Shown: positions 9,982 through 30,705 of the stretch, one piece after another
Position numbering within the stretch: position 1 is the stretch's first letter
How the letters are laid out: each line of letters begins with the position of its first letter
Source: Candidatus Eiseniibacteriota bacterium
Lineage (GTDB): Bacteria; Eisenbacteria; RBG-16-71-46; CAZAMP01
Reading direction: 5' to 3'
Length of the DNA: 64,000 nucleotides
Assembly: GCA_965224245.1 (NCBI GenBank)
Contig: OZ245046.1
Coordinates: forward strand, 5,088,001 to 5,152,000
The notes under the pieces: generated by a model
Databases searched by the model: none
What the model saw: only the letters and a program-made list of their open reading frames with translations
Told to the model about the DNA's origin: nothing
Made by a program: the position numbers and the translations under genes

Positions 9982-9985
9982 TCCC

Positions 9986-10755: not shown

Positions 10756-11223
10756 ATGATCCGATCCCCCGAGATGGCCGATCTCCGCCGATGGACCGCC
10801 GCGGCCTCGCTGGCCGCGCTCGCGACGTGTGCCGGATGCGCCGGCGACTCCGCGGGTCCGACGACACCGCGCACCGATCCGCCGACCGGCGGCGAGATCT
10901 TCCTGCTCGACTTCGACGCCTACGTGACGCGGGTCGCGCCGGTCCTGTCGACGAGCGGCTGCGCGGCCGCCGGCGACTGTCACGGCGGAGGGATCCGCGG
11001 CACGTTCGAGCTGTCTCCCGAGGATGCCAAGGACCACGCCTTCGACTTCCAGCAGGTGGTTCTTCAGGTGGCCCCGTACACGCCCGACGCGAGCCCGATC
11101 CTGACCAAGCCTCTCGCGTCCGATGCCGGCGGCGAGCCACACGCGTTCGAGCCGTTCCCGAGCACCGACGACGACGGGTATCGCGCGATCGCCGACTGGA
11201 TCCACGAAGGGGTCTTCGAGTGA
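10756..11223 (+). CDS. Lipoprotein with atypical heme-c-like motif (CX5CH), planctomycete-cytochrome-like
   Basis: Lipobox-like LATCAGC; VAPVLSTSGCAAAGDCHG; SPILTKP...H...Y.AIADWI. Start uncertain (10720/10756/10774). Confidence 0.6.
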   Translation: MIRSPEMADLRRWTAAASLAALATCAGCAGDSAGPTTPRTDPPTGGEIFLLDFDAYVTRVAPVLSTSGCAAAGDCHGGGIRGTFELSPEDAKDHAFDFQQVVLQVAPYTPDASPILTKPLASDAGGEPHAFEPFPSTDDDGYRAIADWIHEGVFE

Positions 11224-11945
11224 TGCGCCTCGTGTGCCGGGTCGCCATTGCGGGTGCGCTCTCGGCCTGTCTCCTTGCCTCGCCCGTGCGCGCCCGCGAT
11301 GCGTCCGCCAACGACGCGCCCGGGGAGGCACGCGACGCGACCCGGGCCGCGCTGACCAGCCAGGGATCCGGCGAGCCCGCAACGTCCGACGCGTCCGCCG
11401 ACGCGATCGCCGAAACGACCGCCGACGGTTCGCTCGACGCGCTCGTCCCCGACGTGGCCCGCGATCCCTGGAAGCTGAGCCCCGGCACGCGCCCGTTCGC
11501 CGGACGCTTCACCTTCGGGGCGGCGTACGGCTCGCTGGGTGACCATCGCCTGTACGCGCTATGCGCCGCCTACAGCCCGAGCGCCTGGCTCTCCTGGGAG
11601 GCCGCGATCGGACACAACCCGGGCGACGCCGTCCATGCGCTCTTCCACACCCTGTCGGCGCACGTTCGCCACCCGCTGCCGTGGCGGCTCCAGCCCTACG
11701 GAACGATCGGGTTCGGACAGGCCATGGTGTTTCCCGGCACGAGCATGAACGCCGACCCCGTCACCGAGAACGTGCTCACGGTCGGCGGCGGACTCGAGAT
11801 CTACATCCGTGACGACGTCGCGCTCCGGGGCGAGGTGCGTCAGGCCACGGTCTTCGGCCCGGAGCGAGGCTCCGAGCGGACCGCGCGATACGACTACGCC
11901 GAGGCCACGATCGGCCTCGCGTTTCACAGACGAGTCAGAAACTGA
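11223..11945 (+). CDS. Putative outer-membrane beta-barrel protein
   Basis: ATG overlaps upstream stop; signal peptide; amphipathic strands LQPYGTIGFG, VGGGLEIYI, VALRGEVR, EATIGLAF. Confidence 0.68.
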   Translation: MRLVCRVAIAGALSACLLASPVRARDASANDAPGEARDATRAALTSQGSGEPATSDASADAIAETTADGSLDALVPDVARDPWKLSPGTRPFAGRFTFGAAYGSLGDHRLYALCAAYSPSAWLSWEAAIGHNPGDAVHALFHTLSAHVRHPLPWRLQPYGTIGFGQAMVFPGTSMNADPVTENVLTVGGGLEIYIRDDVALRGEVRQATVFGPERGSERTARYDYAEATIGLAFHRRVRN

Positions 11946-12052
11946 ACGAGCGTCGCGGCACCGGACGCGTCACACGCCGCGGACCGCGTACGCCCATCAG
12001 CGGGGACGCGCCGAGCCGGGCCTGGCGGGGGCCCGCGGCGCAGGAGGCGATC

Positions 12053-14101
12053 ATGCTGAGACACCCGAGCACCCGCGACGTCGCGCCCCCGCGACCGTTG
12101 CACCGTCACCTCGTCACGCCGGGGCTGGTCGCGACGGCGGCCGGGCTGGCGCTCGTGTCGACCGGGTGCCGCGACAGCGCGCCCGACGATCTGATCCAGG
12201 AAGAAGAGACCACCGAGGCGCTGGTCTTCGTGAAGACCGAGGGCGAGGAGACGCTCAACCGGAGCTGGGCCCACAGCAACCTGTACAAGCTGTCCCCGAT
12301 CGCACCCGACGGCGAGGTCATCCCCCTGACCGACTACACCGGCGCCAGCGTCTCGGATCCGTGCGTGTCGTTCGACGGCCGGCGGATCCTGTTCGCGATG
12401 CGCCCTCCGGGCGTATCGAGCAAGAACATCTACGAAATCGCCGCCGACGGCACCGGGCTCCGTCAGGTGACCTCGGGCGGCGGACACGACTTCGATCCGC
12501 TGTACCTGCCCGACGGCCGCATCCTGTTCACGAGCTCCCGCGACGGTGAGATGGACGAGTACAACCACTCGCCGTCCGAGCACCTGTATCGGTGCAACTC
12601 GGATGGAACGGGCCTGGAGCGGCTCAGCTTCAACCAGTCCGACGACTTCGACCCGTTCCTGCTCCCCAGCGGCCGCATCGGCTACACGCGCTGGGAGCAC
12701 TTCGGCACGTTCAATCGCTTCCCGCTCTTCGTGACGAATCCCGACGGGACGGGCACGTTTCACCACTACGGTCCTCACTCCCGGAACTTCTTCCACGCGC
12801 AGACGACACCCGACGGCCGCATCATCGCGATCGAGTCGACGATGGTGAACGAGGACGCCGGGCCGATCGCGCTTCTGAAGCTCGAGCAGGGTCCAGCCGA
12901 TCCGGTGCTGGGCGGCTCGTCGCTGCACTGGGATCGGCTCACCGTGGACGTGGGCACCGACGGCGCCCCGTGGACCTACGGCGCATTCAAGTACCCGTTC
13001 CCGATCGGCGGCAACCGCTTCGTCGCGTCGTACACGCTGCCCGCGGCCACCGAGGAGGACGTGGACTACGGGCTGTACACGTTCACGCTCAACCAGAGCG
13101 GCGCGGGCACGGTCGAGGAGCCGGCCACGTTCACGCTGAACGACATGACGTTCCTCTACAACGATCCCGCGACCAACGAGTACGACGCGCAGCTCCTGGC
13201 GCCGCACGGACGTCCGCCGGTGGTGCCCGACGTCGTGGACCCCTCGGTGGACTACGGCGTATTTCTGGCCCAGGACGTCTTCAACCGGGGCACGAACGAC
13301 GGTCAGGAGCGGCCGGTCCACGGAGTCGATGCGATCGACGAGATCGCCGTCATCGCGGCGCGCCCCACGATGCGGGGCATGAACAACGGCACCTCGGCCA
13401 ACGAGTTCGAGATGCGGGCGCTCATCGGCTTCGCGCCGGTGCAGCCGGACGGCTCGTTCCGGATCAAGGTGCCGGCCGACACCCCGATCACGTTCGCGAC
13501 GCTCGACGACCACGACCGCGGGTTCGTGGTGAAGCGGACGTGGCTTTACGTGCGCCCCGGCGAGGAGTTCGATCAGTGCACCGGGTGTCACGAGGATCGC
13601 GACGCGGGCGGCCTGCGCCCGACGAACCCCGACCCGTTGGCCGCGCACCTCGAGCCGACGGACCTGAACCTCCCCGCGTCGGCGTTCCGGATCATCAACT
13701 ACGAGAGCAGCATCGCGCCCATCGTTGACGCGAAGTGCGTGTCCTGCCATCAGCCCACGTACGTGGAGCGCGACTCCATACTGGCCGACGAGACCGTGGT
13801 CACCGTGGTCGACACGATCCCCGCACCGGCCAACCTGGATCTGACGGCGACGCCCGACACGCTGATGATGGAGAACGAGATCTTCCCCCGCGGCTACGTG
13901 AACCTCTCCGGGGAATCCGAGCACCTCGAGGAGCAGGTCGTGCGCCCGGCGTTCCCACGCCGGTCGGTGCTGATCGACTACGTGCTCGGCCTCGGCGAGC
14001 GCGCGGCGCTCGGCCCCCACCCCGAGGACGAGTACGCGCTCACGGACGAGGAGAAGGAGACCTTCAACCTCTGGGTGCTACTGGGCGCCCAGTACAAGTA
14101 G
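12053..14101 (+). CDS. HzsA-like lipoprotein: PD40/TolB propeller, hydrazine-synthase-alpha middle-like domain, two CxxCH
   Basis: Lipobox LVSTGC; DPCVSFDGRRILFAM and DFDPLYLPDGRILFTSSR; YTRWEH; PVQPDGSFRIKVPADTPI...RPGE..CTGCHE; IAPIVDAKCVSCH. Confidence 0.82.
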   Translation: MLRHPSTRDVAPPRPLHRHLVTPGLVATAAGLALVSTGCRDSAPDDLIQEEETTEALVFVKTEGEETLNRSWAHSNLYKLSPIAPDGEVIPLTDYTGASVSDPCVSFDGRRILFAMRPPGVSSKNIYEIAADGTGLRQVTSGGGHDFDPLYLPDGRILFTSSRDGEMDEYNHSPSEHLYRCNSDGTGLERLSFNQSDDFDPFLLPSGRIGYTRWEHFGTFNRFPLFVTNPDGTGTFHHYGPHSRNFFHAQTTPDGRIIAIESTMVNEDAGPIALLKLEQGPADPVLGGSSLHWDRLTVDVGTDGAPWTYGAFKYPFPIGGNRFVASYTLPAATEEDVDYGLYTFTLNQSGAGTVEEPATFTLNDMTFLYNDPATNEYDAQLLAPHGRPPVVPDVVDPSVDYGVFLAQDVFNRGTNDGQERPVHGVDAIDEIAVIAARPTMRGMNNGTSANEFEMRALIGFAPVQPDGSFRIKVPADTPITFATLDDHDRGFVVKRTWLYVRPGEEFDQCTGCHEDRDAGGLRPTNPDPLAAHLEPTDLNLPASAFRIINYESSIAPIVDAKCVSCHQPTYVERDSILADETVVTVVDTIPAPANLDLTATPDTLMMENEIFPRGYVNLSGESEHLEEQVVRPAFPRRSVLIDYVLGLGERAALGPHPEDEYALTDEEKETFNLWVLLGAQYK

Positions 14102-14112
14102 GGGACGAGACG

Positions 14113-14718
14113 ATGTCGACATCCGGCGTCCTGAGCTGGCTCACGAAGCTCGGCCTCGCGATCCTGGCTGCGACCGCGGCCTGGGGTGACACACCGAGCC
14201 GCGACACCGCGGGCGCGACCGGACTCGCCGCGGCTTCGCCCGCTGCGGTACCGGCATCGCACCCGGACGGGCCGCTCGGGTCGCACCGACTGGCCACGCT
14301 GGATGGAGGGGATCTTCGTCTCGCCGACCTCGCGGGTGAGATCGTCGTCGTGAACTTCTGGGCCAGCTGGTGCAAGCCGTGCCGGAAGGAGGTTCCGGAG
14401 CTGAACGACGTGCACCGGTGGCTGTCCGGACGTGAGGGACGCGTCGTGGCCGTATCCATCGACCACGATCGTGCCCGGGCGGCGCGCTTCGCGAGCCGTC
14501 AGGGCATGGCGATGACGGTGTGTCACGACGGGCCCGACGGGCTGGCGCGAGCGCTCGACATCTCCAGCGTGCCGTTCACGCTGGTGCTGGATCGTGACGG
14601 TCGCATCGCCCACACGGTCTCTGGCCAGGTCGACGAGGGCGTGCTGGTGGACGTCCTCGCCGGTCTGGACCCCGCGCCACGAATGGCGGAGGTCGGCGCC
14701 GAGGAGGACGCGCGATGA
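14113..14718 (+). CDS. TlpA/CcmG-like thioredoxin (disulfide reductase)
   Basis: VVVNFWASWCKPCRKEVP; VPFTLVLDRDG; N-terminal hydrophobic segment. Confidence 0.9.
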   Translation: MSTSGVLSWLTKLGLAILAATAAWGDTPSRDTAGATGLAAASPAAVPASHPDGPLGSHRLATLDGGDLRLADLAGEIVVVNFWASWCKPCRKEVPELNDVHRWLSGREGRVVAVSIDHDRARAARFASRQGMAMTVCHDGPDGLARALDISSVPFTLVLDRDGRIAHTVSGQVDEGVLVDVLAGLDPAPRMAEVGAEEDAR

Positions 14719-14951
14719 AACGGCTCATGCGACGGACGCTGCGCCTCGTCGTGACGGTCGCGGCACTCGCCACCGCCGCCTCGTCGCTCGGGTGCGGGGC
14801 CAAGGTTTACGAGCGCGAGTTCCTCGCCGATCCCGTGATGTCCTTCGACGTGGACGCCGACGAGGAGCGTCGCGAGCTCAAGTGGCTCGAGGCACGCGAG
14901 GGCTCGGCGGGCGGCGCCGGTGGCGCGGGTGGGGGGTGCGCGTGCAACTGA
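14715..14951 (+). CDS. DUF4266 small lipoprotein
   Basis: Lipobox SLGC; V.YERE.LADPVMSF; REGSAGG.GG.GGGCACN C-terminus; ATGA overlap with upstream gene. Confidence 0.88.
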   Translation: MKRLMRRTLRLVVTVAALATAASSLGCGAKVYEREFLADPVMSFDVDADEERRELKWLEAREGSAGGAGGAGGGCACN

Positions 14952-16081
14952 CGACCTCCCGAGTCCTGATCGCCGCTGCGGCCGTGATCGCCACGCCCGC
15001 CGACGCCGATCTCCTCGACGTGGACGAGCAGAGGGCCGACTACCTGTTTCGCTACTTCGCCGATTCCGACCACGTGCACGTGTTCTCGCACTACGGGGAG
15101 TATGCGATCTCCCTCGAGAGCGACGCCCGGCTCGAGCTCTACTGGAACCGCGAGTCGCTGGTGATTCCCGGAATCGACGCGCCGGCCGGGAGCGCCGAGG
15201 CCGTGGATGCGATCACGACCGCGAGCCGGCCGATCGCCAGCGGGGGCGATGCGTTCCGCGACTACACGAAGGTGCGCAACGAGGTCCAGGGCGGGGTCGC
15301 GTACCGGCGGACCACGCTCGGCTACTACGTCTCGACCGAGAGCGACTACTTCGCCCAGCAGGTGACGCTGCGCCTGGATCGCGACCTGCTCGCGGAGACG
15401 CTGAACCTGGCCGCCGGCGGCAGCTACGGATGGGACGTCATCGATCCCCTCGAGGACGCGGACGGGGCCACGCCGGCCGATCACAAGAACACGTGGCACG
15501 GCAACCTGGTGGCCACGATCATCGTCTCACCCACCACGTTGCTCCGGATGGGGGGCGAGCTGACCGTGGTCGACGGTCTCCAGCACAACCCGTATCGCAA
15601 CGTGTACGCCGGTGGCGGGCCCGAGCTCGAGCGACACCCGGATCACCGCGAGCGCCGCGATCTCTTCCTGAAGCTGAGTCAGTACTTTCGCAATCGATCC
15701 AGCGCTCGCGTGGACTATCGGCTCTACGCGGACGACTGGGGGGTGTCGTCCCGGACCTTCGGCGCGCGTCTTCATCAGTACCTGACCGACGCGCTCAGGG
15801 TGCGGTACCGGTACCGCTACTACGATCAGAGCGCCGCGGACTTCCATCGCGAGGAGTACGAGAGCCCGGATGGAATCGATGGACTTCGCACCGGCGACTA
15901 CCGGCTGTCCGCGATGACGTCCCATCTCTTCGGAACGCGGGTCACGCTGGATCTACGCGCGATGTCGACGTCGTCGCCGGTGCTCCAGAGGTTCGAGCTG
16001 GCCGTCGGCTACGAGCGCTACTTCAACTCCAACAACTTCTCGGCAAACGTGTTCGAGTCCGGGCTGACCTACCGGTTCTAG
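14942..16081 (+). CDS. DUF3570 outer-membrane beta-barrel protein
   Basis: Follows DUF4266. Motifs VDAITTAS, STESDY, GLQHNPYR, ERHPDHR.R, YRLYADDWGV, RYRYYDQSAADF; ends TYRF. Confidence 0.85.
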   Translation: MQLTTSRVLIAAAAVIATPADADLLDVDEQRADYLFRYFADSDHVHVFSHYGEYAISLESDARLELYWNRESLVIPGIDAPAGSAEAVDAITTASRPIASGGDAFRDYTKVRNEVQGGVAYRRTTLGYYVSTESDYFAQQVTLRLDRDLLAETLNLAAGGSYGWDVIDPLEDADGATPADHKNTWHGNLVATIIVSPTTLLRMGGELTVVDGLQHNPYRNVYAGGGPELERHPDHRERRDLFLKLSQYFRNRSSARVDYRLYADDWGVSSRTFGARLHQYLTDALRVRYRYRYYDQSAADFHREEYESPDGIDGLRTGDYRLSAMTSHLFGTRVTLDLRAMSTSSPVLQRFELAVGYERYFNSNNFSANVFESGLTYRF

Positions 16082-16130
16082 CCCCGGCGCGCGCCGCGTG
16101 CGCGCGACCCCTTCCAACAGGAGGAAGGCC

Positions 16131-17765
16131 ATGAAGCGAGTCGTATTCGGACCGCTGGCGCTGGCGGTCGTCATGGTCGGACCGGCGACGGGAGGGACGT
16201 TCGAGCGATCCCAGCTGTCTCCCGAGCACGGGATCGACGCGGTGACCCGGGCAGTGGCGCGCGAGACCGTGAATCGGGATCTGTTCTCGCGACCGCACTC
16301 AAGCGTTCTCGTGGGCAACGTGGACGTGTACGACACGTTCCCGTACCTGGAAGCGCGATACGTACAGGTCGTGTCGGATCCGGGCTGGAACCGTCTGCTG
16401 TACGGGGAGATCGGCAAGAGCCTGTCGGCCGCCGACGGTCTGGCGGATCCTCACGGACTGGCGGTGGACGCGCGCGGGCGCGTGTACGTGGCCGACACCG
16501 GCAACGATCGGGTCGTGGCGTACGACCTCTCCTACGAGTTCGACGACGTGCACCTGGTGCCCCGGTTCACGGTGGACGACCTGCGCCGTCCCTACGACGT
16601 CGCGGTGTCGGACGGGGGGACACCCTTCGACCCGTCGGACGACCGGCTCTACGTGGCCGACACCGGTCGCAACCGGGTCGCCGCGTTCTCGCTCGGCGAG
16701 AACGGGGCCACGCTCGCGAGCGCAATCGGCGGGCTCGGCAGCGGCACGGGCCGACTGGCCGGCCCGATGGCGATCGCCGTCGGACACCGGAACGGCGTGT
16801 GCACGACCGACGTGTACGTCGCCGACGCACACACGCGGCGCCTGATTCGTCTTCGGGACGGCGCCGACGGTCTCTCCTGGGTGTCCGAGCACCGGCACCA
16901 GGCCGACCTCGTCTCGTCGCTCGACACCGATCACTGGGGCAACGTCTACGCGAGCGAGCCCGGGACCGACACCGTTCGCAAGTACACGCCGGGCCTGTAC
17001 GAGGTGGCCGCGCTCCGTGATGGGCTCGTGCGCCCGCGGGACTTCCACGTGCCGTTCGTCACGGTGCGGGACCACCGCGACGGCTCGGTGACGCGATCGG
17101 GCGAAGCCGGCGGCCTCGTGGTGGAGCAGTGGGCGAGCGACAGCGGCGTCCGCCTGTTCTCGCTGGGGACCGAGGCGACCGATCTCAGCGTGGAGGCCGA
17201 TGCCGGGCTCAGCGCGCGTTTCGTCCTCACCGATCCCGCCGACGTGCGCGTCACGGTCACCGATGCGGCGAACGGCGAGCGCGTCGCCGAGCATCAGGCG
17301 GGTCGACTGGAGGCGGGACCGCAGACCGTGTCGTTCAGCGCCGGGGACTTCGTGCGCCCTCTCGGTGACGGCGACTACCTGATGCGCGTGACGTCGCACT
17401 CGGGCTACGCGTCCGGCGGATCGGACGTGGCCCAGGTCAGCTTCCGCTTCGGTGAGGAGGGTCTCGTGCTGACGCCGACGCGGCCGCTCCTCCTGGGCAA
17501 CCACCCGAACCCGTTCAACCCGACCACACGCGTGCAGGTGCTGGTGCCAGAGAACGCAATCGGGACGCGCGCGGAGTTCCGCGTCTTCGACACGCGGGGC
17601 CGTCTCGTCCATGCGACCGAGCGCGACGTCTCGTCGGCCGGGCTACAGGCATTCGACTGGGATGGCTCGTCACGAGGCGGTCTGGACGCCTCGGCCGGCG
17701 TGTACTTCTACGAGGTCGCGGTGGCCGACGAGCATCTCGACGGCCGAATGGTGCTGATCCGATGA
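16131..17765 (+). CDS. Secreted NHL-repeat protein with FlgD-Ig CTD
   Basis: GGAGG RBS; PHGLAVD..GRVYVADTGNDRV and LYVADTGRNRV repeats; C-terminal PNPFNP...WDG...AGVYFY. Confidence 0.82.
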   Translation: MKRVVFGPLALAVVMVGPATGGTFERSQLSPEHGIDAVTRAVARETVNRDLFSRPHSSVLVGNVDVYDTFPYLEARYVQVVSDPGWNRLLYGEIGKSLSAADGLADPHGLAVDARGRVYVADTGNDRVVAYDLSYEFDDVHLVPRFTVDDLRRPYDVAVSDGGTPFDPSDDRLYVADTGRNRVAAFSLGENGATLASAIGGLGSGTGRLAGPMAIAVGHRNGVCTTDVYVADAHTRRLIRLRDGADGLSWVSEHRHQADLVSSLDTDHWGNVYASEPGTDTVRKYTPGLYEVAALRDGLVRPRDFHVPFVTVRDHRDGSVTRSGEAGGLVVEQWASDSGVRLFSLGTEATDLSVEADAGLSARFVLTDPADVRVTVTDAANGERVAEHQAGRLEAGPQTVSFSAGDFVRPLGDGDYLMRVTSHSGYASGGSDVAQVSFRFGEEGLVLTPTRPLLLGNHPNPFNPTTRVQVLVPENAIGTRAEFRVFDTRGRLVHATERDVSSAGLQAFDWDGSSRGGLDASAGVYFYEVAVADEHLDGRMVLIR

Positions 17766-19059: not shown

Positions 19060-19061
19060 CG

Positions 19062-20000: not shown

Positions 20001-20009
20001 GAGTCATCG

Positions 20010-20576: not shown

Positions 20577-20579
20577 TCG

Positions 20580-24400: not shown

Positions 24401-26101
24401 CGCCATCGAGCCGCACGTGAGTCCGGCGCCGGGGCCGACTACGCGGATGCGCGATCGCTGTACGAGACGGTGCTCCGCATCTGGCCGGACGACGCGGACG
24501 CGGCTCGCCTCCATCTCTACGCCGGTGATGCGGCCGCCCACGAGGATGCGTTCGCGGCCGCGGTCTCGCACTTCGGCACCGCCGCCGAGAGCGACAGCCT
24601 CTCGCTGGCCCAGGATGCGAGCTGGCAGCGCGTGAGCGTGACCGACCGGTGGTATCGGGCCACCGCCGAGAGCGACTCGCTGGCCAGTGTGCTCATCTCG
24701 AGCCTGGGAACTCACGTGGACCGGTTCGCCGACGACCCGCGCAACGCCGATCTGAGGTGGCGCCGCGCCACGCTGGCCATGGCGCACGCGCGCCACGCGG
24801 CCGCAATCGCGCTGTTCTCCGACTTCATCGCCTCGCATCCGCTCGACCCGCGTCGCCCCGATGCGGCGAGCATGCGCGCGGACGCCGTCTACGCCACGGG
24901 CGCCTACCGCGACGCGTCCGACGCCTATGCCGACGCGGTCGCGATCGCACGAGCGGCCGGACGCGACAGCCTCGCGGCGACGCTGACCCCGAACGTATCG
25001 GCGTCGTTCTTTCAGCACGTCGAGGCTGCGGTGGCGGCGAACGCGCCGAAGGGCATCGAGGCTTCGCTCCTCTCCACGTTCGCCGATCGCTGGCCCGATC
25101 ACGCGAACGCGCCCGTGGCCCGCTATCGGGCCGGGCTCGCCTGGCGTGACGCGAAGCGCTGGGCGGCCGCGGACTCGGCGCTGACCCGACTGATCGCCCG
25201 TCATCCGGACACGGAGCTCGCGCGCGATGCTCACCTGACGCGGGCGGACCTGTGGAAGGAGGCGGACGAGCCGGCTCGCGCCGCCGACGCACTGCTCGCC
25301 TTCGCGAATGCGTACCCCGACGACGCCGATGCCGGCACCGCGCTACTGGAGAGCGCCGATCTCGTGGAATCCGCAGGGCGGCCCGAGGACGCCGAGCGGC
25401 TTCGCCTCGACTACCTGGATCGTCATCCGGACGACGTCGCGACCGCGATGGAGATCCTGGAGCCGCTGGCCCGACGCGAGCTCGACGGGCTCGACGCCGG
25501 CGCACCCGTGCGCACGCTTCTCGACGGCGAACGTGGGACCCATCTCGCGCGCTACGTGACGCTGGCCGACGCGAACGCCGCGCTGGCTTCTCGCGAGCTG
25601 ATCGCCGAGGTCCGGTTCCGGGAGGCCGAGGACGAGCTCGGGCCGTACCTCGCGCTCCAGCTCACACAGCCGATCGACGCGGCGATCGAGCGGCGAAAGA
25701 GCCGGCTCGAGGCCGTGATGACCCGGTACCAGCGCGCGGCCGACGTCGGCGTGCCCGAGTGGACGCACGCCGCGGCGCACCGGATCGGCGAGGCACTCGT
25801 CGACTTCGGACGGGCGCTGGAGGTCAGCGAGCGTCCCGGTGATCTCGGCGAGGAGGATCTGTGGGCCTACGAGGACGTGCTGTTCGAGCAGAGCTGGACG
25901 TTCTACGACCGGGGCGAAGCGGTCTGGACCGATCTCCTGTCCGGCACCGGGGTCTTCCCCGACCACGACCCGGGCGGGTGGCTGGCCCGCGCCCGCGCGT
26001 CGCTGTGGTCACGACTGGCCACGCGGTTCTCGCTGAAGCCCGACTTCGAGTATCCGGTCGCGACGGCGACCCCGCCGACCCTCACCGCGGAGGCGAACTG
26101 A
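21446..26101 (+). CDS. Giant periplasmic TPR protein (GltD/AgmU-like, ~1550 aa)
   Basis: GTGA overlap; many TPR/BamD-like repeats (EAQLRLGDLAF, ALYKLGWSHF, ARYRAGLAW); C-terminal WTHAAAHRIGE..VDF...LE.SERP..L.....YEDVL.EQ. Confidence 0.82.
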   Translation: MTSVSFSRLARLLSCVGAGVAIGQLAVASVANGAPGEAPEPETADAARPSSIAWPATVDPDAVQFGLALTAARVAGPARVAEILEGLNVASASFEGADRAAFLLANAYLETGDVPAFLALATALTDRNPRSPYSHWIATLQAMLTGRPRETGSVRDALDDVAGATGALLESLASRAATTPLDVELSALAALELARRDVATGGDPTSRLLAVPSASVHAARARHVAAAWLYEAGRPAAARGVLDTLLVADPDYADRRDAELLLAAILTDAADWERALSRYSAIDEDWRREDAELREIESDADWDALWTRWRGQGEETIAFDGDRIEVERRAAVEHALVPRSPSPDEPSRAELVPTGARPRGARVPAPGDDELREVADLALTIGERESERTRLFVRMADLEADAARRARHAARGGARLDETRAALGAGVDELESLAATLDALAVELGAVRDDAIGVFTARAGRMARAARSAVVTLEALDRFYVGGPNLRRATPSPPGVPSPSEVLASEAELAAELGTFCDRLTRDVADLIARSHDEAWRPGLVDSARTLLARGHALLQDETGLAARVRVAGDDHGAAAAVRGRLAALDGELSRLRARRAEVREATARHAIDVRRRALASEREAIDYGLATATYWCSRGAEPGPGARAGEREAIARYGAFLVHYPESGARGEVRFNLADLELSAARRAFRETMARYVEEHAMDDAQAGKVSALFVDVSPALALYDAILAEDPGFAHRDAVLFNAGMLLADQGDPRAESHLEALVTEHPSSEFHQEAQLRLGDLAFDRASYLRAAPAYEAAACGDDAGHAAIALYKLGWSHFNVDAFEAAADAFRRLLDLYDTTDVRDVGADLRVEAEDYLVHALSRAGGADAFAAYFGSIGPRDYEPRVLDRLARLLRRFSLYSESIAADRLFTERYPTRPGALVSAARIVDAYAARNEPERAHEARLWFAPMFAPGSQWRAANADADSIRTAGETFARDAWKTVAFERHRAARESGAGADYADARSLYETVLRIWPDDADAARLHLYAGDAAAHEDAFAAAVSHFGTAAESDSLSLAQDASWQRVSVTDRWYRATAESDSLASVLISSLGTHVDRFADDPRNADLRWRRATLAMAHARHAAAIALFSDFIASHPLDPRRPDAASMRADAVYATGAYRDASDAYADAVAIARAAGRDSLAATLTPNVSASFFQHVEAAVAANAPKGIEASLLSTFADRWPDHANAPVARYRAGLAWRDAKRWAAADSALTRLIARHPDTELARDAHLTRADLWKEADEPARAADALLAFANAYPDDADAGTALLESADLVESAGRPEDAERLRLDYLDRHPDDVATAMEILEPLARRELDGLDAGAPVRTLLDGERGTHLARYVTLADANAALASRELIAEVRFREAEDELGPYLALQLTQPIDAAIERRKSRLEAVMTRYQRAADVGVPEWTHAAAHRIGEALVDFGRALEVSERPGDLGEEDLWAYEDVLFEQSWTFYDRGEAVWTDLLSGTGVFPDHDPGGWLARARASLWSRLATRFSLKPDFEYPVATATPPTLTAEAN

Positions 26102-26102
26102 C

Positions 26103-27047
26103 ATGCGTGCATCCCGATGGATCGTCACGTGGATGGTCGGCGGAGCGCTGCCCGTGCTCCTCGCCGGCTGTGGCGGTGTGCACCGCTCGGGCGAAGATCG
26201 CCTGGCCGATGCGCGCACCGCGGATCGGCTCGGGCACGCGGATGCCGAGGTGCTCCTGGCCGAGGCCGCCACGCGGCGCGCCGAGTTCCCGGACGAGCCC
26301 TACTGGCCGTATCGGATGGCCCGCGTACATCTGGCGCGCGGCGAGAAACGCGAGGCGATGTCGTCCCTCGGGGACGCGCTCCGCCTGGATCGCACGTACG
26401 AGCCGGCGCTGCTTCTCCTGTCGAAGGTCTACTTCGACCGGGGTCGTCATCAGGAAGCCGTCGACCTCATCGAGGGCGCGCGTCGCGCGAGCGCCGGCGA
26501 CGGGGCCGCGTCGGGCCTCTCCCCGCGCCTGGCGGCCGCGCTCGCGCTGCACCACGACGCGATGGAGGCCTGGGCCGACGCCGACGCGATCGTCGACGCC
26601 CTCGAGGATCCCGCGTCGGCGGGCGTCGGATCGGCGCTCGCGTACGTCGCGCTGAAAGGCGAGGACCCCGCGCGTGCGTCCGCGCACGCAGAGGCCGCAC
26701 TCGCCGGCGATGACGACAGCGCCGTGAACCTGAACAACCTCGCCGTCAGCCGGCTTCGCGCCGGGGATCCGGTCGCCGCCCGGGAGGCGCTCTCGAGGGC
26801 GATCGAGCGCGATCCCGATCTGGCGAGCCCGTACTACAACCTCGCGGTGACCGAGCTGTTCTTCTTCCTCGACCGCGAGCGCGCCGCCGAGTGGTTCCGG
26901 AAGTACCGAGAACGTGCCGACGGCAACGGGCCAGCCGACGTGTTCGACCCGGACGGACTGGCGGGCATGCTGGGGGATGTCACCCCCGAACGGCTGGCCG
27001 CAGCCGACGGCGACGAACACGACATGCCGGAAAGGACCACACCATGA
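26103..27047 (+). CDS. TPR lipoprotein (GltE/AglT-like)
   Basis: Lipobox LLAGC; TPR motifs NLNNLAV and PYYNLAV...A..WFRKY. Confidence 0.78.
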   Translation: MRASRWIVTWMVGGALPVLLAGCGGVHRSGEDRLADARTADRLGHADAEVLLAEAATRRAEFPDEPYWPYRMARVHLARGEKREAMSSLGDALRLDRTYEPALLLLSKVYFDRGRHQEAVDLIEGARRASAGDGAASGLSPRLAAALALHHDAMEAWADADAIVDALEDPASAGVGSALAYVALKGEDPARASAHAEAALAGDDDSAVNLNNLAVSRLRAGDPVAAREALSRAIERDPDLASPYYNLAVTELFFFLDRERAAEWFRKYRERADGNGPADVFDPDGLAGMLGDVTPERLAAADGDEHDMPERTTP

Positions 27048-27409
27048 GGCACGACTTTCGCAACGCCTGTCGGGTCGCGGCACTGTGCGCGGTGGCGATC
27101 GGCATGGGCTCTCCCGGCCCGATCGAGGCCGCCGAGGCCGCGTTCACGCTCGAGGACATCACGATCGAAGGCACGGTCGACGTTCCCGAGGTCCTATTCA
27201 TCTCGGGACGCGATCAGGTGAGGTTTCCGAGCACGATGCACCGAACGTATCTGACGTCCGCCGCGGAGCTGGCGAGCCGGGCTCCCCGCGACGTGCGGGT
27301 CATCGTCTGCTGGCGGGGTCTTCTCTGCAGTCGATGGGGCGCCACGGCGCCGGCGGCGACCGAGCCCGGTCCGGCCGACGCGCCGGACGCGGACGTCGAG
27401 ACGGACTGA
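27044..27409 (+). CDS. Small exported protein, GltF/CglF-like
   Basis: ATGA overlap; signal peptide; FTLEDITIEGTVDVPEVLFI.GR resembles the recalled GltF-type 'xIEGxxxxP' motif; lies between the TPR lipoprotein and ExbB. Confidence 0.6.
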   Translation: MRHDFRNACRVAALCAVAIGMGSPGPIEAAEAAFTLEDITIEGTVDVPEVLFISGRDQVRFPSTMHRTYLTSAAELASRAPRDVRVIVCWRGLLCSRWGATAPAATEPGPADAPDADVETD

Positions 27410-27527
27410 GCGTCGAGAGACTCGTTCCGGAGCGCACCGGGGACGGTCGGGCCGGGACACTGGACACGTTTCGAGGATCACATCGATCGGCATGTGCGCG
27501 CCGACGCGCGCCCGGAGGAGCAGCGCC

Positions 27528-28271
27528 ATGGATCTGTTCGCGACGATTGCCGGCTTCTTCAGAGGCGGCGGCCCCTTCATGTACGTGATACTCGGCGTCG
27601 GCGTGCTGATGGTCGCCATCGTCGTCGAGCGGTTCCTCGTGATCGGACGCGCGTCGCGGATCAACACGTCCCGCTTCGTGGCCGATCTCCAGGCCTGCCT
27701 CGAGAAGGGCGACGTGGCCAGGGCGCGAGAGCTGTGCCGTGGCACCACGCCCGCCGTCCGGGTGGCCGCGGCCATCCTCGGAGATGGGTCCGGTGACCAG
27801 CAACGCCTTCAGAACACGGCCGACGGCGCGGCGACGCTTGCGCTCCCGCGCCTCACGAAGCGTCTTCCGCACCTGAACACGCTGGCCAACACGGCCACGC
27901 TCCTCGGCCTCCTGGGAACGATCTTCGGGCTGACCACGGCGTTCTCGGCGGTGGGCGCCGCCGACCCCGCGCAGCGCTCCGCGTTCCTCGCGGCCGGCAT
28001 CTCGCAGGCGCTCAGCACGACCGCCTTCGGACTCATCGTCGCGGTGCCCGCGCTCCTGGCGCACGGCTTCCTGGTGGGCAAGGTCGAGGGTGTCGTCGCC
28101 GACGTGGACGAGGTGAGCGTGAGGCTCGTCAAGCAGATGTCGCGTCCGCGGATGACGACGGCGGGCACCTCGGCTCCGGGTCTGGCCCAGAGCACGGCCG
28201 CGCGCGCGACCGCACCGCGACTGGCCCCGCCGGCTCCGGCAGCCGGCACACCCCGTCGGGGAGCCGCGTAG
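27528..28271 (+). CDS. MotA/TolQ/ExbB proton channel (AglR-like)
   Basis: GGAGGA RBS; GGPFMY, IVVERF, ATLLGLLGTIFGL, GISQALSTTAFGLIVAVP. Confidence 0.93.
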   Translation: MDLFATIAGFFRGGGPFMYVILGVGVLMVAIVVERFLVIGRASRINTSRFVADLQACLEKGDVARARELCRGTTPAVRVAAAILGDGSGDQQRLQNTADGAATLALPRLTKRLPHLNTLANTATLLGLLGTIFGLTTAFSAVGAADPAQRSAFLAAGISQALSTTAFGLIVAVPALLAHGFLVGKVEGVVADVDEVSVRLVKQMSRPRMTTAGTSAPGLAQSTAARATAPRLAPPAPAAGTPRRGAA

Positions 28272-28274
28272 AAC

Positions 28275-28799
28275 ATGGATGTTCGTCGCACCGGCCGGAG
28301 CTATCGACGACTCATCGAGGCCGACATCGAGATGCTGCCGCTGATGAACCTCTTCATCGTGCTGATCCCGATGCTGCTCCTGTCGGCGGTGTTCGTCGAG
28401 GTGACGGCGATCGACATGGCGATGCCAGGGGCGGATCCATCCGAGAGCGCGCCGGAGGAAGAGCCGTTCCGGCTCTCGGTCGAGATCGCGCCCGATGCAT
28501 ACGTCATCGACGGCAATCGCGTCGATCGCCGGGTCATCGACTGGGGGACGCCGGCGGGGACACCCTCGCCGGATGCGGCACACGAGACGCTCCGCGCGGC
28601 GCTGGCCGGGATCGCCGAGCGGCATCCCGAGAACCGCGCGGTTCAGATCCTGTCCCGACCCCGGACGCGCTACCGCGAGATCATCGCCGTGATGGACGCG
28701 TCACGAGAGGCCGGTCTGCCGCACGTCGGACTGGGAGACGCGGCCGCCCCCCGCGGTGTCGGCGACGTTGCCGTCCGCGACGTGACCAACGAGGGCTGA
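28275..28799 (+). CDS. ExbD/TolR family protein (TM Asp replaced by Asn)
   Basis: EMLPLMNLFIVLIPMLL; C-terminal Y..IIAVMDA.REAG. Confidence 0.85.
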   Translation: MDVRRTGRSYRRLIEADIEMLPLMNLFIVLIPMLLLSAVFVEVTAIDMAMPGADPSESAPEEEPFRLSVEIAPDAYVIDGNRVDRRVIDWGTPAGTPSPDAAHETLRAALAGIAERHPENRAVQILSRPRTRYREIIAVMDASREAGLPHVGLGDAAAPRGVGDVAVRDVTNEG

Positions 28800-28801
28800 C
28801 G

Positions 28802-29299
28802 ATGCACCGAACCTGCCACTCCGGTCGGCGCTCGATCGCGTCCCTGAGACGCTCGGGCGGGATCCGACTCACGTCGATGATGGACATCCTGACTGTCCTG
28901 CTCCTCTTCCTGTTGAAGAGCTTCGTCGTCGACGGCGAGGCGATGACACCGCGGGCGGGCATCGATCTTCCCGAGTCGACGGCGGAAGGAAGTCCGGATC
29001 CGTCGCTCGTCGTGGCCATCCAGTCCGACGGGATCGTCCTCGAGGACGAGCTGGTCGCGTCGCTGGCCGAGGTACGCGACGGCGGACTCGAGATCTCCGC
29101 CCTGAGTGAGCGTCTGGACGCGGTCTGGACCCGCATGGACGCGCTGGCGCGGCGTCGTGGCGAGCGCGAGGCCAGCGCACCGACGGCGACGATCCAGGGC
29201 GATCGCGATCTGGAGTTCGACGTCCTGCAACGCGTGATGTTCACGCTCGCCGAGAACGGGTTCGAGGACATCTCCCTGGCGGTCATCAAGAAGTCCTGA
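28802..29299 (+). CDS. ExbD/TolR family protein (AglS-like)
   Basis: LTSMMDILTVLLLFLLKSF; IQGDRDLEF..LQRVMFT. Confidence 0.88.
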   Translation: MHRTCHSGRRSIASLRRSGGIRLTSMMDILTVLLLFLLKSFVVDGEAMTPRAGIDLPESTAEGSPDPSLVVAIQSDGIVLEDELVASLAEVRDGGLEISALSERLDAVWTRMDALARRRGEREASAPTATIQGDRDLEFDVLQRVMFTLAENGFEDISLAVIKKS

Positions 29300-29307
29300 G
29301 GGTGGGC

Positions 29308-30324
29308 ATGGCGACACGTGACCGCAAGTACGACCGGCCACTCTTCGCGGGGCCCGACTCGCTCTTCGCGAAGTGCCTGGCCGGCGCGTCGATGCTCGGC
29401 GCTCTGGTGCTGATCGTCGTCTTCGTGACGCCGCTGCGCGAGCGGGAGCTCGTGACGGTGGACGAGGTGCCGAAGCGCCTGGCCAAGCTCCTGATCGCCG
29501 AGCCCGAGCCGGCGAGGACCCCACCGCTCGTGGCCGAGGCGGTGACGCTCGCCGAGCCGGTCGAGGCGCCCGTCGAGCCGGAGGTCACGCCCGAGCCCGA
29601 GGCGACCGCACCCGAGCCGAGGCCCACCCGGCGCCGGAAGCCACCGGAGGCCGTGCAGCGGGATCCCCGCGCGGGCAAGGCGGGTCGGGACCGCGCGGCG
29701 CGCGAGGTCACCGAGACACTCGCGTCCACGACGAAGAGCGTCGAGTCGGCGCTCACGAGCCTGTCGGCGAGCCTGGCCGGTGCGAGCGACGCGCCGGAGT
29801 CTCCGAGGCGCCCGCGCCGCCAGCGGCGCACGCGGAGCGGCCGGTCCGGCGGGCAGGTCACCGCGGCGGAGACCGCGGTCGTCTCGGCGGGATCGCGGGC
29901 GGCGACCGACGTCGCGCTGGAGACCGAGCTGGTCGCCGTCGAGTCGCTGGGCTCCGGGGGTGGCGCGTCGAGTCCGGGAGGATCCGGCGCCGGCGCGAGC
30001 TCGGGTGTCGACGTCCATCGTTCGACCGCGTCGCTGCTCTCGGTCGTTCGCCGGTACGCGGCCGGGATCCAGTTCTGCTACGAGAACGAGCTGAAGCGCG
30101 ACCAGACGCTCAGGGGCAAGATCGTCGTGTCCCTGACGGTCTCGCCGGAGGGTCGCATCGAGGCGGTCGATCTCGTCGAGGACACGCTCGGCTCGCCGGC
30201 GCTCGGCTCGTGTGCGCTCTCGCAGATCCGAGACTGGCGTTTCCCGCCGATCGACGAGGGCCGGGTGACGTTCCGGATCCCGTTCGTGTTCACGCCCCCC
30301 ACGACGGTGGCGGATCGGGACTGA
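29308..30324 (+). CDS. TonB-like energy transducer with AgmX/PglI C-terminal domain (GltG-like)
   Basis: N-terminal TM; Pro/Glu-rich linker; C-terminal IQFCYENELK.D..LRGKIVV.LTV...G...C...IRDWRFP. Confidence 0.85.
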   Translation: MATRDRKYDRPLFAGPDSLFAKCLAGASMLGALVLIVVFVTPLRERELVTVDEVPKRLAKLLIAEPEPARTPPLVAEAVTLAEPVEAPVEPEVTPEPEATAPEPRPTRRRKPPEAVQRDPRAGKAGRDRAAREVTETLASTTKSVESALTSLSASLAGASDAPESPRRPRRQRRTRSGRSGGQVTAAETAVVSAGSRAATDVALETELVAVESLGSGGGASSPGGSGAGASSGVDVHRSTASLLSVVRRYAAGIQFCYENELKRDQTLRGKIVVSLTVSPEGRIEAVDLVEDTLGSPALGSCALSQIRDWRFPPIDEGRVTFRIPFVFTPPTTVADRD

Positions 30325-30675: not shown

Positions 30676-30705
30676 TTGTCGATCCCGCCTCGATCGGGCG
30701 ATAAT
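30676..30705 (+). promoter_or_regulatory. Candidate sigma70 promoter for glnA
   Basis: TTGTCG-N18-GATAAT upstream of the GS gene. Confidence 0.35.

Follow-up and report, generated by a model that had tools for sequence, protein, structure and literature searches.

A conserved block of about twenty envelope genes in Eisenbacteria, in which an Agl/Glt-core-type motor may act on an outer-membrane redox platform

The ancestral core of the Agl/Glt machinery consists of gltC, gltD, gltE and gltG together with aglRQS, and GltF is confined to the myxobacterial/Bdellovibrio group (Luciano 2011, PMC3169522). The same study describes this core as recruiting modules for new functions. In Myxococcus xanthus, the Agl-Glt and Agl-Nfs systems pair a proton motor of the inner membrane with a TonB-like transducer and a TPR shaft, and at the outer membrane they have lipoproteins and small OmpA-like barrels; the cargo is an adhesin or a spore-coat polymer (PMC11761067, PMC4488436, PMC3858216). 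The C-terminal domain of GltG docks on GltD, and the OmpA-like barrels GltA/GltB expose a lipoprotein (PMC11761067, PMC4488436). A different set of gene clusters, the "DsbD systems", brings together an exported ApbE, a thioredoxin-fold reductase (PF13899), a DUF4266 protein with a C-terminal CXC motif and a DUF3570 protein that is flavinylated by ApbE, while DsbD itself can be unlinked, as in 316 of the clusters (Meheust 2021, PMC8238504). In addition, non-anammox HZS_alpha proteins possess two haem c sites besides their propeller and middle domain, and they show no conservation at the position of the catalytic Tyr591 (Hagglund 2025, PMC12758564).

Here we report that relatives of these systems are found side by side in Eisenbacteria. 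The window, i.e. the whole stretch of 64,000 nucleotides that was analysed, contains exactly 19 plus-strand genes at positions 10756-30324, as judged from third-position GC and open frames, which confirms the block of 19 co-oriented genes recognized in a preliminary description. The many ATGA/GTGA overlaps mentioned there come down to 7 overlapping junctions, 4 of which are of the ATGA or GTGA type. From g01 to g19, the intergenic gaps are, in order, -1, 107, 11, -4, -10, 49, -4, -7, 2, 9, 3, -4, 1, -4, 118, 3, 2 and 8 nt. This packing, including the 9-nt gap between g10 and g11, is operon-like. The block consists of two units with their boundary at g10/g11 (Table 1). The two halves had previously been divided at g12/g13, but g11 and g12 go with the motor in divergent layouts, and the natural break is therefore g10/g11. 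Profile and family searches bore out almost all of the earlier domain calls; the exceptions are the g02 barrel, which is sub-threshold, g09, which has no family, and the label "GltF-like" for g15, which had been based solely on position and found no support in any search.

Table 1. Features of the block and the associated ApbE gene in the window.
Feature	Description	Position	Strand	Evidence
ApbE	flavin transferase with signal peptide	1418..2494	+	Pfam ApbE 270.6 bits
unit A	CX5CH lipoprotein, HzsA-like dihaem lipoprotein, TlpA, DUF4266, DUF3570, T9SS-tailed NHL propeller, small barrels	g01-g10	+	
g01	lipoprotein (LATC lipobox), C-x5-C-H	10756..11223	+	sequence
g02	probable small outer-membrane barrel, long acidic N-terminal extension	11223..11945	+	sub-threshold OMP_b-brl 21 bits, OMP_myx_plus 19 bits
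g03	HzsA-like lipoprotein: PD40 propeller, HZS_alpha middle domain, two CXXCH (C509, C562)	12053..14101	+	HZS_alpha middle domain 63.5 bits
g04	membrane-anchored TlpA/ResA-type thiol-disulfide reductase, WCKPC	14113..14718	+	AhpC-TSA 70 bits, Redoxin 65 bits
g05	DUF4266 lipoprotein, C-terminal GGCACN (C-x-C)	14715..14951	+	PF14086 55.2 bits
g06	DUF3570 outer-membrane protein	14942..16081	+	PF12094 128.4 bits
g07	NHL beta-propeller, FlgD_ig / T9SS type A sorting tail	16131..17765	+	TIGR04183 25.7 bits (cut-off 23)
g08	lipoprotein (LVTGC), beta-sandwich fold	17762..18391	+	AlphaFold model, pLDDT 88.8
g09	exported protein	18385..19059	+	ESM-Atlas neighbours partly with OMP_b-brl
g10	periplasmic SH3 domain and C-terminal OmpA-like barrel, last of unit A	19062..20000	+	SH3_3 28.4 bits; OMP_myx_plus 58 bits (cut-off 60)
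unit B	giant TPR protein, TPR lipoprotein, ExbB, two ExbD, AgmX-type TonB-like protein	g11-g19	+	
g11	exported protein, weak PepSY likeness, first of unit B	20010..20576	+	PepSY 20.3 bits (cut-off 24)
g12	exported protein, ~70-residue helix, C-terminal beta-sandwich	20580..21449	+	predicted model, pLDDT 73.7
g13	1551-aa exported TPR scaffold, GltD position	21446..26101	+	TIGR02795 94.7 bits (cut-off 90.1); TPR_6
g14	TPR lipoprotein (LLAGC), GltE position	26103..27047	+	many TPR families
g15	small exported protein	27044..27409	+	residues 35-78 conserved in relatives, 52-59% identity
g16	TolQ/ExbB/AglR-type proton channel subunit	27528..28271	+	MotA_ExbB 83 bits
g17	ExbD/TolR-type subunit without transmembrane Asp	28275..28799	+	ExbD 52.7 bits
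g18	ExbD/TolR-type subunit with transmembrane Asp (MMDIL)	28802..29299	+	ExbD 49.4 bits
g19	TonB-like: one transmembrane helix, Pro/Ala-rich linker, AgmX/PglI-type C-terminal domain	29308..30324	+	NF033768 89.3 bits (cut-off 40); TonB_C 30 bits

Unit A shares with the "DsbD systems" its DUF3570 protein, its DUF4266 protein with a C-terminal CXC, its thioredoxin-fold reductase and an exported ApbE, and the earlier view of TlpA-DUF4266-DUF3570 as a flavinylation-associated module agrees with Meheust 2021 (PMC8238504). The ApbE gene of the window, displaced by an insertion, sits 8.3 kb upstream of g01. Its orthologue directly precedes g01 in other Eisenbacteria, where this position (less than 1.5 kb upstream, same strand, 44-57% identity) is occupied in 32 of 52 assessable loci, and ApbE belongs to the unit A set, as the 20th gene of the block. 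DsbD is unlinked, as it can be in the "DsbD systems": the genome has two DsbD_TM genes, both outside the block. The G-rich C-terminal CxCN of g05 is conserved in an alignment of its relatives. The reductase belongs to the TlpA/Redoxin type, in contrast to PF13899 of the "DsbD systems", and the ResA/TlpA models score below their own cut-offs. Whereas those systems carry [S/T]GA[S/T], g06 contains a single D-A-I-T-T-A-S (residues 89-95, conserved in 58 sequences), which, judged from the sequence, we regard as a variant of the flavinylation motif; a second DUF3570-like ORF in the genome has DAITSAS and DGITSAT in tandem. Two features depart from the canonical redox module, i.e. the strict [ST]GA[ST] motif is missing from g06 and present in only 8 of 57 orthologues, and TlpA was undetected between g03 and g05 in four loci (L042, L079, L090 and L099) whose flanking genes are present.

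Beyond the parts of a "DsbD system", the block contains a dihaem lipoprotein resembling HzsA and a lipoprotein with CX5CH, besides three small barrels, a propeller with a T9SS tail and the motor. The HzsA-like protein, g03, matches PDB 5c2v_A in five stretches that span its whole length (E 4.4e-28), and it resembles the non-anammox HZS_alpha proteins in domain make-up (propeller and middle domain), in its two haem c sites and in the lack of conservation at the position of Tyr591. It differs from them in being a lipoprotein, with a conserved mature N-terminus (C..SAPDDLI), in lying inside a DUF3570 module, and in having neither a beta-gamma (CCP-like) homologue nor an FG-GAP gene alongside. Family searches gave no match for g01, but its C69, C75 and H76 are conserved in an alignment of 41 sequences, and the C-x5-C-H may be an unusual haem c site. 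The putative barrel g02 was found in 68 of 71 loci. Although g09 has no family match and no profile likeness to g10, its ESM-Atlas neighbours suggest that it is possibly a small outer-membrane barrel; it shows the lowest conservation in the set (24-40% identity, 47 loci). The C-terminus of g10 is a typical ...AYLF. For g08 there is no family, and its model gives only generic beta-sandwich matches. The genome has more than 100 tails of the g07 type and also encodes an SprA homologue, and g07 is probably a cell-surface cargo.

An ExbB/ExbD/TonB-like set adjoining outer-membrane barrels could also serve energized reductive uptake, in which the redox proteins would reduce a poorly soluble oxidized substrate (e.g. 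a metal) and the TonB-like motor would open the DUF3570 barrel or another one for import. Flavinylation clusters have indeed been tied to iron assimilation, with the VIT1 iron transporter in 25 DUF3570 clusters (Meheust 2021, PMC8238504). This explanation is unlikely, since a family search of the 19 proteins recovered no plug or TonB-dependent receptor domain and no inner-membrane permease, binding-protein or ABC genes, g06, g09 and g10 show little conservation at their N-termini, and models of the AgmX-type domain dock it to a TPR shaft and not to the plug of a barrel (PMC11761067).

The last seven genes had been equated with a gltD-G plus aglRQS core. The layout is indeed of the Agl/Glt-core type: as in the core complex of non-gliders (Group B gltC, gltD, gltE, gltG, aglR, aglQ and aglS; PMC3169522), one ExbB/TolQ-type and two ExbD/TolR-type genes stand beside a TonB-like AgmX/PglI protein, and a giant TPR protein, a TPR lipoprotein and an extra small gene lie in the same cluster. 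The composition claimed was not that of Luciano 2011, however, and no Glt equivalog model was reached by unit B (GltG 57.7 bits against 650; g14 against the GltE equivalog NF033758, 25.6 against a cut-off of 225). Unlike the described core, unit B has no separate GltC that could be recognized and one of its ExbD copies lacks the Asp; moreover, it is found in an FCB-type candidate phylum and is tied to a 10-11-gene redox/outer-membrane unit. In g17, Asn replaces the transmembrane Asp (PLMNLF) in five of seven aligned orthologues, the residue being G in L015 and S in L105, while g18 retains the Asp in all seven. The C-terminal ...PFVFTPP of g19 is invariant among 26 sequences. Because the transmembrane helix of g19 contains no His, the protein lacks the SHLS/His motor-binding motif of TonB and TolA; like the missing plug or TonB-dependent receptor domain, this counts against coupling. 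No family match was obtained for g12 or g15 in family searches, nor a Foldseek match for g12 at <=1e-3. Orthologues of g13 are present in relatives, and g11 stays with the motor both in the divergent layout and in a motor-only locus.

As the motor, TPR proteins and small OmpA-like barrels are laid out as in Glt and Nfs, gliding or surface translocation might be envisaged, with the barrels as the outer-membrane platform and the probably surface-exposed g07 or a lipoprotein as the adhesin. The likeness observed is one of layout rather than of homology to GltA, GltB, GltH or GltK, and the block has no cytoplasmic platform, g19 having a short cytoplasmic end (~22 residues) and no FHA domain. Since the core alone is insufficient for motility and is present in non-gliders (Luciano 2011, PMC3169522), and since such a model leaves the haem, flavin and thiol proteins, here in the place of the cargo, without a role, we regard gliding as very improbable. 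Still less credible is a role in outer-membrane stability as a second system of the Tol-Pal type, with g03 as TolB, the C-terminus of g13 as CpoB and the SH3-barrel g10 standing in for Pal. TolQ-like, TolR-like, TolA/TonB-like, TolB-like propeller and CpoB-like TPR parts can be picked out across units A and B: the best NCBIfam matches are TolQ for g16, TolR for g17/g18, TolB for the g03 propeller and YbgF for g13, TolB chains match g03 residues 61-186, and the CpoB/YbgF-type TPR of g13 (residues 1225-1329) scores above its cut-off. The other Tol models nevertheless score far below theirs (TolQ on g16, 67.8 bits against 221), no OmpA_C/Pal domain was found among the 19 proteins in the family search, the genome holds seven other paralogues of g16, and the block is accessory, as a search of 206 genomes of the phylum did not find it in 127.

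The arrangement of unit A is strictly kept, with g01-g10 in the order of the window in all 53 Eisenbacteria loci that contain at least eight of these genes, at 24-76% amino-acid identity. Unit B follows closely: g11 lies directly after g10 and colinear in 44 of the 46 loci with at least 1.5 kb beyond g10, the other two being divergent, and all 41 loci that extend at least 3 kb beyond g10 have a g13 match. Five genomes (G027, G021, G020, G016 and G036) preserve the complete g01-g19 order, and G032 and G005 have the two units divergent but still adjacent, unit B being represented there by g11, g12, g13 and g16-g19. Since the halves are adjacent wherever contigs permit a judgement, the proviso attached to the preliminary description, that they might rarely be linked, does not apply within Eisenbacteria. 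Among 206 genomes of the phylum, a count that includes one unpublished genome (G083), 61 have both markers, 127 neither, 5 the A marker only and 13 the B marker only, so that the units are jointly present or jointly absent in 188. The pair spans 12.3-19.0 kb in all 32 genomes found with both markers on one contig; among 41 genomes of the class, the 11 with a DUF3570 orthologue (E <=1e-56) are the same 11 with an AgmX domain of at least 74 bits. Roughly one third of Eisenbacteria species carry the block. In three of the five A-only genomes, the g03 contigs (12-14 kb) stop before unit B, and a fourth has a weak match to the propeller alone; no assessable genome possesses unit A without unit B.

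Unit B can exist by itself. In G082, genes for penicillin amidase and pyruvate kinase flank a set made up of a g11-like gene, a 1886-aa TPR protein, ExbB, two ExbD and AgmX, with no unit A homologue within 28 kb upstream, and five further genomes of its genus (g57) have the B marker without g03, the locus having been examined in G082 as one of the six. This autonomy counts against coupling and suggests that two independent envelope systems, a redox module and a motor, might merely lie side by side, kept together by descent or by regulation shared under one condition, with neither a physical nor an energetic link between them. The Agl/Glt core also stands alone in Gammaproteobacteria, Geobacter and Fibrobacter (PMC3169522), the ApbE/DUF3570/thioredoxin-like/DUF4266 clusters are, in the descriptions given of them, named without motor genes (Meheust 2021, PMC8238504), which likewise counts against coupling, and two genomes have separate, divergent transcription units. 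Furthermore, all carriers fall within one class, and shared descent could therefore explain part of the linkage. We consider such independence a serious but less probable alternative. Against it, adjacency survives inversion and amino-acid divergence down to 25-50% identity, the units are absent together in a patchy manner across several families, unit A is never left alone in an assessable genome, and only 9 nt separate g10 from g11 in the window.

On balance, we tentatively favour, at somewhat below even confidence, a supra-operon of about 20 envelope genes, specific to this lineage, in which a motor acts on an outer-membrane redox platform. ApbE would attach FMN to g06, probably at Ser95 of D-A-I-T-T-A-S. 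The unlinked DsbD would feed TlpA, which in turn would act on the DUF4266 lipoprotein by cycling its C-x-C, and the HzsA-like and CX5CH lipoproteins would supply haem centres. The platform at the outer membrane and surface would be completed by the g02, g09 and g10 barrels, the beta-sandwich lipoprotein and the NHL propeller, presumably exported by the T9SS. Unit B would constitute a proton-driven motor of the Agl/Glt-core type, with one ExbB/TolQ-like subunit, two ExbD/TolR-like subunits of which one bears the Asp and the other does not, g19 as the transducer and the giant TPR protein as the shaft, plus the TPR lipoprotein. Through g19, the motor may pull or turn the TPR scaffold, as proposed for GltG and GltD. 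We infer that the moving scaffold would act on the unit A platform and expose, position or gate its redox lipoproteins and flavin barrel, and that electrons may in this way pass between the periplasm and a cell-surface substrate.

The earlier interpretation of the locus, a single energized complex with a redox step, is thus partly supported. Two modules that are known elsewhere, each without an assigned function, now share one genomic context.

Third-position GC and frame analysis resolved exactly 19 plus-strand genes (g01 to g19) at positions 10756-30324 of the window, most of whose other open frames are spurious owing to a G+C content of 67-74%. This bears out the 19 co-oriented genes of the preliminary description. 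The intergenic gaps from g01 to g19 are, in order, -1, 107, 11, -4, -10, 49, -4, -7, 2, 9, 3, -4, 1, -4, 118, 3, 2 and 8 nt. A consensus scan returned no sigma-70-like site and was uninformative, other promoter types lying outside its scope; a terminator scan, equally uninformative, gave three sites versus 3.8 expected from shuffled sequences, and thus no excess. Nearly all domain labels first assigned to the 19 proteins were confirmed with Pfam and NCBIfam. The barrel label is weak for g02, which has sub-threshold matches only, and for g09, which belongs to no family and whose profile has no PDB match and no likeness to that of the SH3-barrel protein g10; ESM Atlas neighbors alone hint at a barrel for g09. 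The name "GltF-like" given to g15 is supported by nothing. The AlphaFold-type model of g08 shows a beta-sandwich with good confidence (pLDDT 88.8), for which Foldseek gave generic beta-sandwiches only and no informative structural neighbor. The model of g12 is a helix of ~70 residues followed by a beta-sandwich (pLDDT 73.7), with no Foldseek match at or below 1e-3, and its ESM Atlas clusters are unnamed.

Coordinates and family matches of the gene block, its surroundings and related open frames (window coordinates unless a genome or locus is named)
Feature	Position	Strand	Description
ApbE gene	1418-2494		signal peptide
Propeller gene	2497-3675	+	6-bladed propeller; in 8.3-kb insertion
1840-aa protein	3730-9252	-	DUF7948, SBBP, PKD, FlgD_ig tail; in 8.3-kb insertion
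Gene pair	9472-10540		DUF4920 and PepSY_TM_like_2; between displaced ApbE and g01
g01	10756 onward	+	lipobox and C-x5-C-H motif
g04-g06	14113-16081	+	adjoining and overlapping
g04		+	TlpA/ResA-like; AhpC-TSA, 70 bits
g05		+	DUF4266; PF14086, 55.2 bits
g06		+	DUF3570; PF12094, 128.4 bits
g07	16131-17765	+	NHL repeats and FlgD_ig / T9SS type A tail
g10		+	SH3 domain and OMP_myx_plus-type barrel
g16-g18	27528-29299	+	contiguous; MotA_ExbB, 83 bits (g16); ExbD, 52.7 bits (g17) and 49.4 bits (g18)
Glutamine synthetase gene	30631-33036		type III; 306-nt gap after the block
FlgD_ig-tailed protein	34201-35916		
hcp-like genes	44919-47027		three genes
hcp-like tandem copies	44919-45392, 45843-46316		two near-identical copies
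FlgD_ig-tailed protein	53464-56610		
FlgD_ig-tailed protein	58578-60359		
Second DUF3570-like open frame	G000 (window's genome), C1:3914330-3915958		outside the window; tandem VDAITSAS and VDGITSAT
g03 orthologue	G047, C24:35261-37218		matched piecewise; 5 and 2 in-frame TGA stops
g03 orthologue	G155, C1:2512053-2514055		matched piecewise; 2 in-frame TGA stops
TPR giant of the motor-only genus	G082, L105 7156-12816		1886 aa; extra TPR repeats at C-terminal end

An alignment search of public genomes with g03, an HzsA-like lipoprotein, yielded 71 loci, of which 36 were labeled by their submitters as Candidatus Eisenbacteria or Eiseniibacteriota and 11 otherwise (Krumholzibacteriota, Gemmatimonadota and others), the rest being unclassified. 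A whole-genome search found g03 matches in 66 genomes, every one of them placed in the class of the window's genome. The complete order of g01-g19 is found in five relatives whose contigs are long (G027, G021, G020, G016 and G036), and is kept up to the contig ends in two more (G023 and G038). In the more distant relatives G032 and G005, whose g03 is 48-49% identical, g01-g10 run one way, and g11, g12, g13 and g16-g19 run the opposite way beyond g01. This inversion divides the block into two natural units, A (g01-g10, the redox and outer-membrane set) and B (g11-g19, the motor set), which are still neighbors after it. The window order is retained in all 53 loci with at least eight of g01-g10. 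Moreover, g11 directly follows g10 in 44 of the 46 loci with at least 1.5 kb past g10, the other two being divergent loci, and a match to the giant TPR protein g13 is present in every one of the 41 loci with at least 3 kb past g10.

The two units are also distributed together. A DUF3570 orthologue (E <= 1e-56) is present in 11 of 41 genomes of the class, and precisely these 11 have an AgmX domain of at least 74 bits. In a scan of 206 genomes of the phylum, in which g03 (E <= 1e-20) marked unit A and the AgmX domain (E <= 1e-12) marked unit B, g03 was found in 66 and AgmX in 74: both in 61 (including one unpublished genome, G083), A only in 5, B only in 13 and neither in 127, counts that overstate the statistical weight because the relatives share descent and are not independent. 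Where both markers lie on one contig (32 genomes), they span 12.3-19.0 kb in all cases and share a strand in 30. Their distribution is patchy from family to family, and sequence identity among the unit A proteins is down to 24-76%. Within one class, the gene order and the shared distribution make a functional tie between the units likely.

The main rival explanation is that units A and B are two independent neighbors with no coupling between them, which we consider rather unlikely. It is favored by DUF3570 clusters that stand alone elsewhere and by a genus, g57, in which unit B is autonomous and to which six of the 13 B-only genomes belong. In G082, a member of this genus, the locus comprises a g11-like gene, the TPR giant, ExbB, two ExbD and an AgmX-type protein; penicillin amidase and pyruvate kinase genes lie upstream, and no unit A homologue occurs within ~28 kb. 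Thus, the motor can occur in the absence of the redox unit. The remaining B-only genomes are G025, with a weaker match (54.6 bits) in an 813-aa open frame, and six that are 65-87% complete. The reverse, unit A without unit B, was not shown in any of the five A-only genomes: the g03 contigs of G091, G154 and G150 (12.1, 14.3 and 12.9 kb) end before unit B would start, the match of G099 starts at contig base 58, and that of G116 is 39% identical to the propeller alone. A separate g14-like lipoprotein gene was not detected in G082; given this and the extra TPR repeats of its giant, the GltD-like and GltE-like parts may be fused there.

Unit A contains the TlpA, DUF4266 and DUF3570 genes (g04-g06), which had been described as a flavinylation-type module and do stand side by side with the family matches listed in the table. 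According to Meheust 2021 (PMC8238504), ApbE flavinylates DUF3570 at two [S/T]GA[S/T] motifs, and ApbE, DUF3570, a thioredoxin-like protein and DUF4266 (with a C-terminal CXC) cluster with or without DsbD, the function of the cluster being given there as unknown. The window resembles this cluster in that DUF3570 and DUF4266 lie beside a thioredoxin-fold protein, with an exported ApbE in the set, and differs from it in that g06 is without the two strict [S/T]GA[S/T] motifs. TlpA went undetected in four loci that do have its neighbor genes, and two DsbD_TM genes lie elsewhere in the window's genome. In orthologue alignments, the C-x5-C-H of the lipoprotein g01 and the C-terminal CxCN of g05 are both conserved.

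While g06 has no strict [S/T]GA[S/T] motif, it carries the variant D-A-I-T-T-A-S at residues 89-95, which is conserved in 58 sequences; the place of the second motif is degenerate. Since a second DUF3570-like open frame in the same genome has VDAITSAS and VDGITSAT in tandem, we infer that the DAITTAS of g06 is most probably homologous to the first flavinylation site and that the second site has decayed. The second frame adjoins neither of the other two ApbE genes of the genome (near 2.596 Mb and 2.771 Mb). A "TGAS" in g03 (residues 96-99) was rejected as a flavinylation site; it sits in the PD40 repeat signature, and [ST]GA[ST] is kept in only 39 of 63 orthologues.

Of the three ApbE genes in the genome, one lies in the window and counts as a twentieth gene of the set. 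Its orthologue (44-57% identity) immediately precedes g01 in the same orientation in 32 of the 52 loci with enough upstream sequence. In the window, the two are separated by ~8.3 kb; at one related locus (L074), ApbE likewise lies ~8 kb upstream of g01. PepSY-like membrane proteins are listed among flavinylation-associated electron-transfer classes in Meheust 2021 (PMC8238504). The DUF4920 and PepSY_TM_like_2 pair of the window was rejected as part of the set, as none of the 71 loci has a homologue of either gene.

By its sequence, g03 is a true HzsA homologue. It combines PD40 repeats with an HZS_alpha middle domain (PF18582, 63.5 bits) and CXXCH at residues 509 and 562, and a profile built from its orthologues aligns over its full length, in five stretches, with the solved alpha chain of hydrazine synthase, 5c2v_A (E 4.4e-28). 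The likeness takes in the propeller, the middle domain and the two heme c sites along the whole length. Nonetheless, g03 differs from HzsA in its score on the NCBIfam equivalog NF052339 (94.6 bits versus a cut-off of 800) and in the variability of the orthologue column aligned with Tyr591, the residue with a catalytic role in the alpha chain (PMC12758564). In addition, no beta or gamma homologue is nearby, and no CCP/MauG-like gene is present among the 19. These departures are consistent with the HzsA homologues outside anammox described in Hagglund 2025 (PMC12758564), which in that account are without the catalytic residues and for which no function is known. The g03 orthologues of two genomes, G047 and G155, are broken by stops and may be decaying copies or assembly errors.

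The propeller protein g07 probably reaches the cell surface, because its tail passes the T9SS sorting-domain cut-off and is found over 100 times in the genome, which also encodes a SprA homologue. A tail of the FlgD_ig type occurs on five proteins of the window (g07, the 1840-aa protein, a peptidase M28, an LVIVD/Kelch protein and a subtilase), and tblastn with g07 gave 101 matches in the genome, mostly to the tail, which would appear to be a T9SS-type sorting signal in very wide use. Other features of the window include the hcp-like genes and the glutamine synthetase, whose frame has an unconserved-looking N-terminal extension of ~60 residues, so that its true start may be later.

The last seven genes of unit B were previously equated with the ancestral core of the Agl/Glt motor, which Luciano 2011 (PMC3169522) describes as gltC, gltD, gltE, gltG and aglRQS, grouped in non-gliders together with one further gene. 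As in Group B of that study, one TolQ/ExbB-type gene adjoins two TolR/ExbD-type genes (g16-g18), and the membrane protein g19 ends in an AgmX/PglI-type TonB-like domain (NF033768, 89.3 bits versus a cut-off of 40). The transmembrane Asp of ExbD/TolR is kept in g18 in 7/7 aligned orthologues; at this position, g17 has Asn, and two relatives have Gly or Ser. About 22 cytoplasmic residues, one helix and a Pro/Ala-rich linker precede the AgmX domain of g19, which ends in an invariant PFVFTPP; the helix is without the His of the SHLS motif. That motif, His included, has been described for TonB and TolA. The TPR proteins g13 (1551 aa, with a CpoB/YbgF-type stretch) and g14 (a 314-aa lipoprotein) fit GltD and GltE in architecture, while g14 scores 25.6 bits versus 225 on the GltE model NF033758 and g13 matches no Glt model at E 0.01 or better. 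On the other hand, g19 gives 57.7 bits versus 650 on the GltG equivalog NF033760 and has no FHA domains, and neither a third TPR protein nor a match to the GltC model is found among the 19 proteins. As for GltF, Luciano 2011 (PMC3169522) places it in the group restricted to Myxococcales and Bdellovibrionales. Since no Glt equivalog was reached and no GltC was recognized, we call unit B Agl/Glt core-type by its architecture, which fits, rather than an established member.

A Tol-Pal paralogue would be another reading of the block. The YbgF TPR domain alone passes its cut-off (94.7 versus 90.1 bits); the scores for TolQ (67.8 versus 221), TolR (30 versus 127) and TolB (47.6 versus 343) all fall below those of the equivalogs, and the set has no OmpA_C/Pal domain. 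A further reading is energized reductive uptake; a search of all 19 proteins for Plug and TonB_dep_Rec gave no match, and hence no TonB-dependent receptor. These two readings and gliding are each less likely than either coupling of the units or their independence. The block was rejected as the only Tol or TonB engine of the cell, the genome having seven other ExbB paralogues.

In the structural model of the gliding motor, the TonB-like domain of GltG docks on the TPR shaft of GltD, which reaches the OmpA-like barrels GltA and GltB through GltC, and these barrels, with GltK, expose the lipoprotein CglB (as outlined in PMC11761067 and PMC4488436). By analogy, g16-g19 would drive a scaffold of g13 and g14, which would act on a platform of barrels and lipoproteins formed by unit A and might thereby expose or gate flavin, heme and thiol carriers. 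Such physical coupling of units A and B is a tentative reading, the most probable of those considered though slightly less likely than not. In a broader form, the Agl/Glt-type core would be a general proton-driven actuator of outer-membrane platforms, which in Eisenbacteria mechanically exposes or gates a flavin, heme and thiol electron conduit; as a whole, this proposal is doubtful. The conduit would then consist of the DUF3570 barrel with FMN, the CxC lipoprotein of DUF4266, the HzsA-like and CX5CH heme lipoproteins and the T9SS-displayed propeller. If true, an outer-membrane redox system would for the first time be seen to draw on the inner-membrane proton motive force, and the gliding-motor "ancestral core" and the DUF3570 module alike would gain a first function.

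Both modules are of known kinds; what appears new is the stable combination of the two with an HzsA-like protein and ApbE. In a literature search, no paper was found that joins Eisenbacteria, DUF3570 and an Agl/Glt-type motor, or that reports this union. The Agl/Glt core of non-gliders (2011) and the ApbE/DUF3570/DUF4266 module (2021) are both widespread envelope systems that have gone without an assigned function for more than ten years, and the HzsA homologues outside anammox are a further such case. In these uncultured hosts, the three orphans are joined in one conserved block that is passed on and lost as a whole and survives inversion. The block lends support to a view of the core motor as a reusable engine that can be fitted with different cargo modules. 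Its known cargoes are gliding and spore-coat assembly, to which a redox platform would be an addition.
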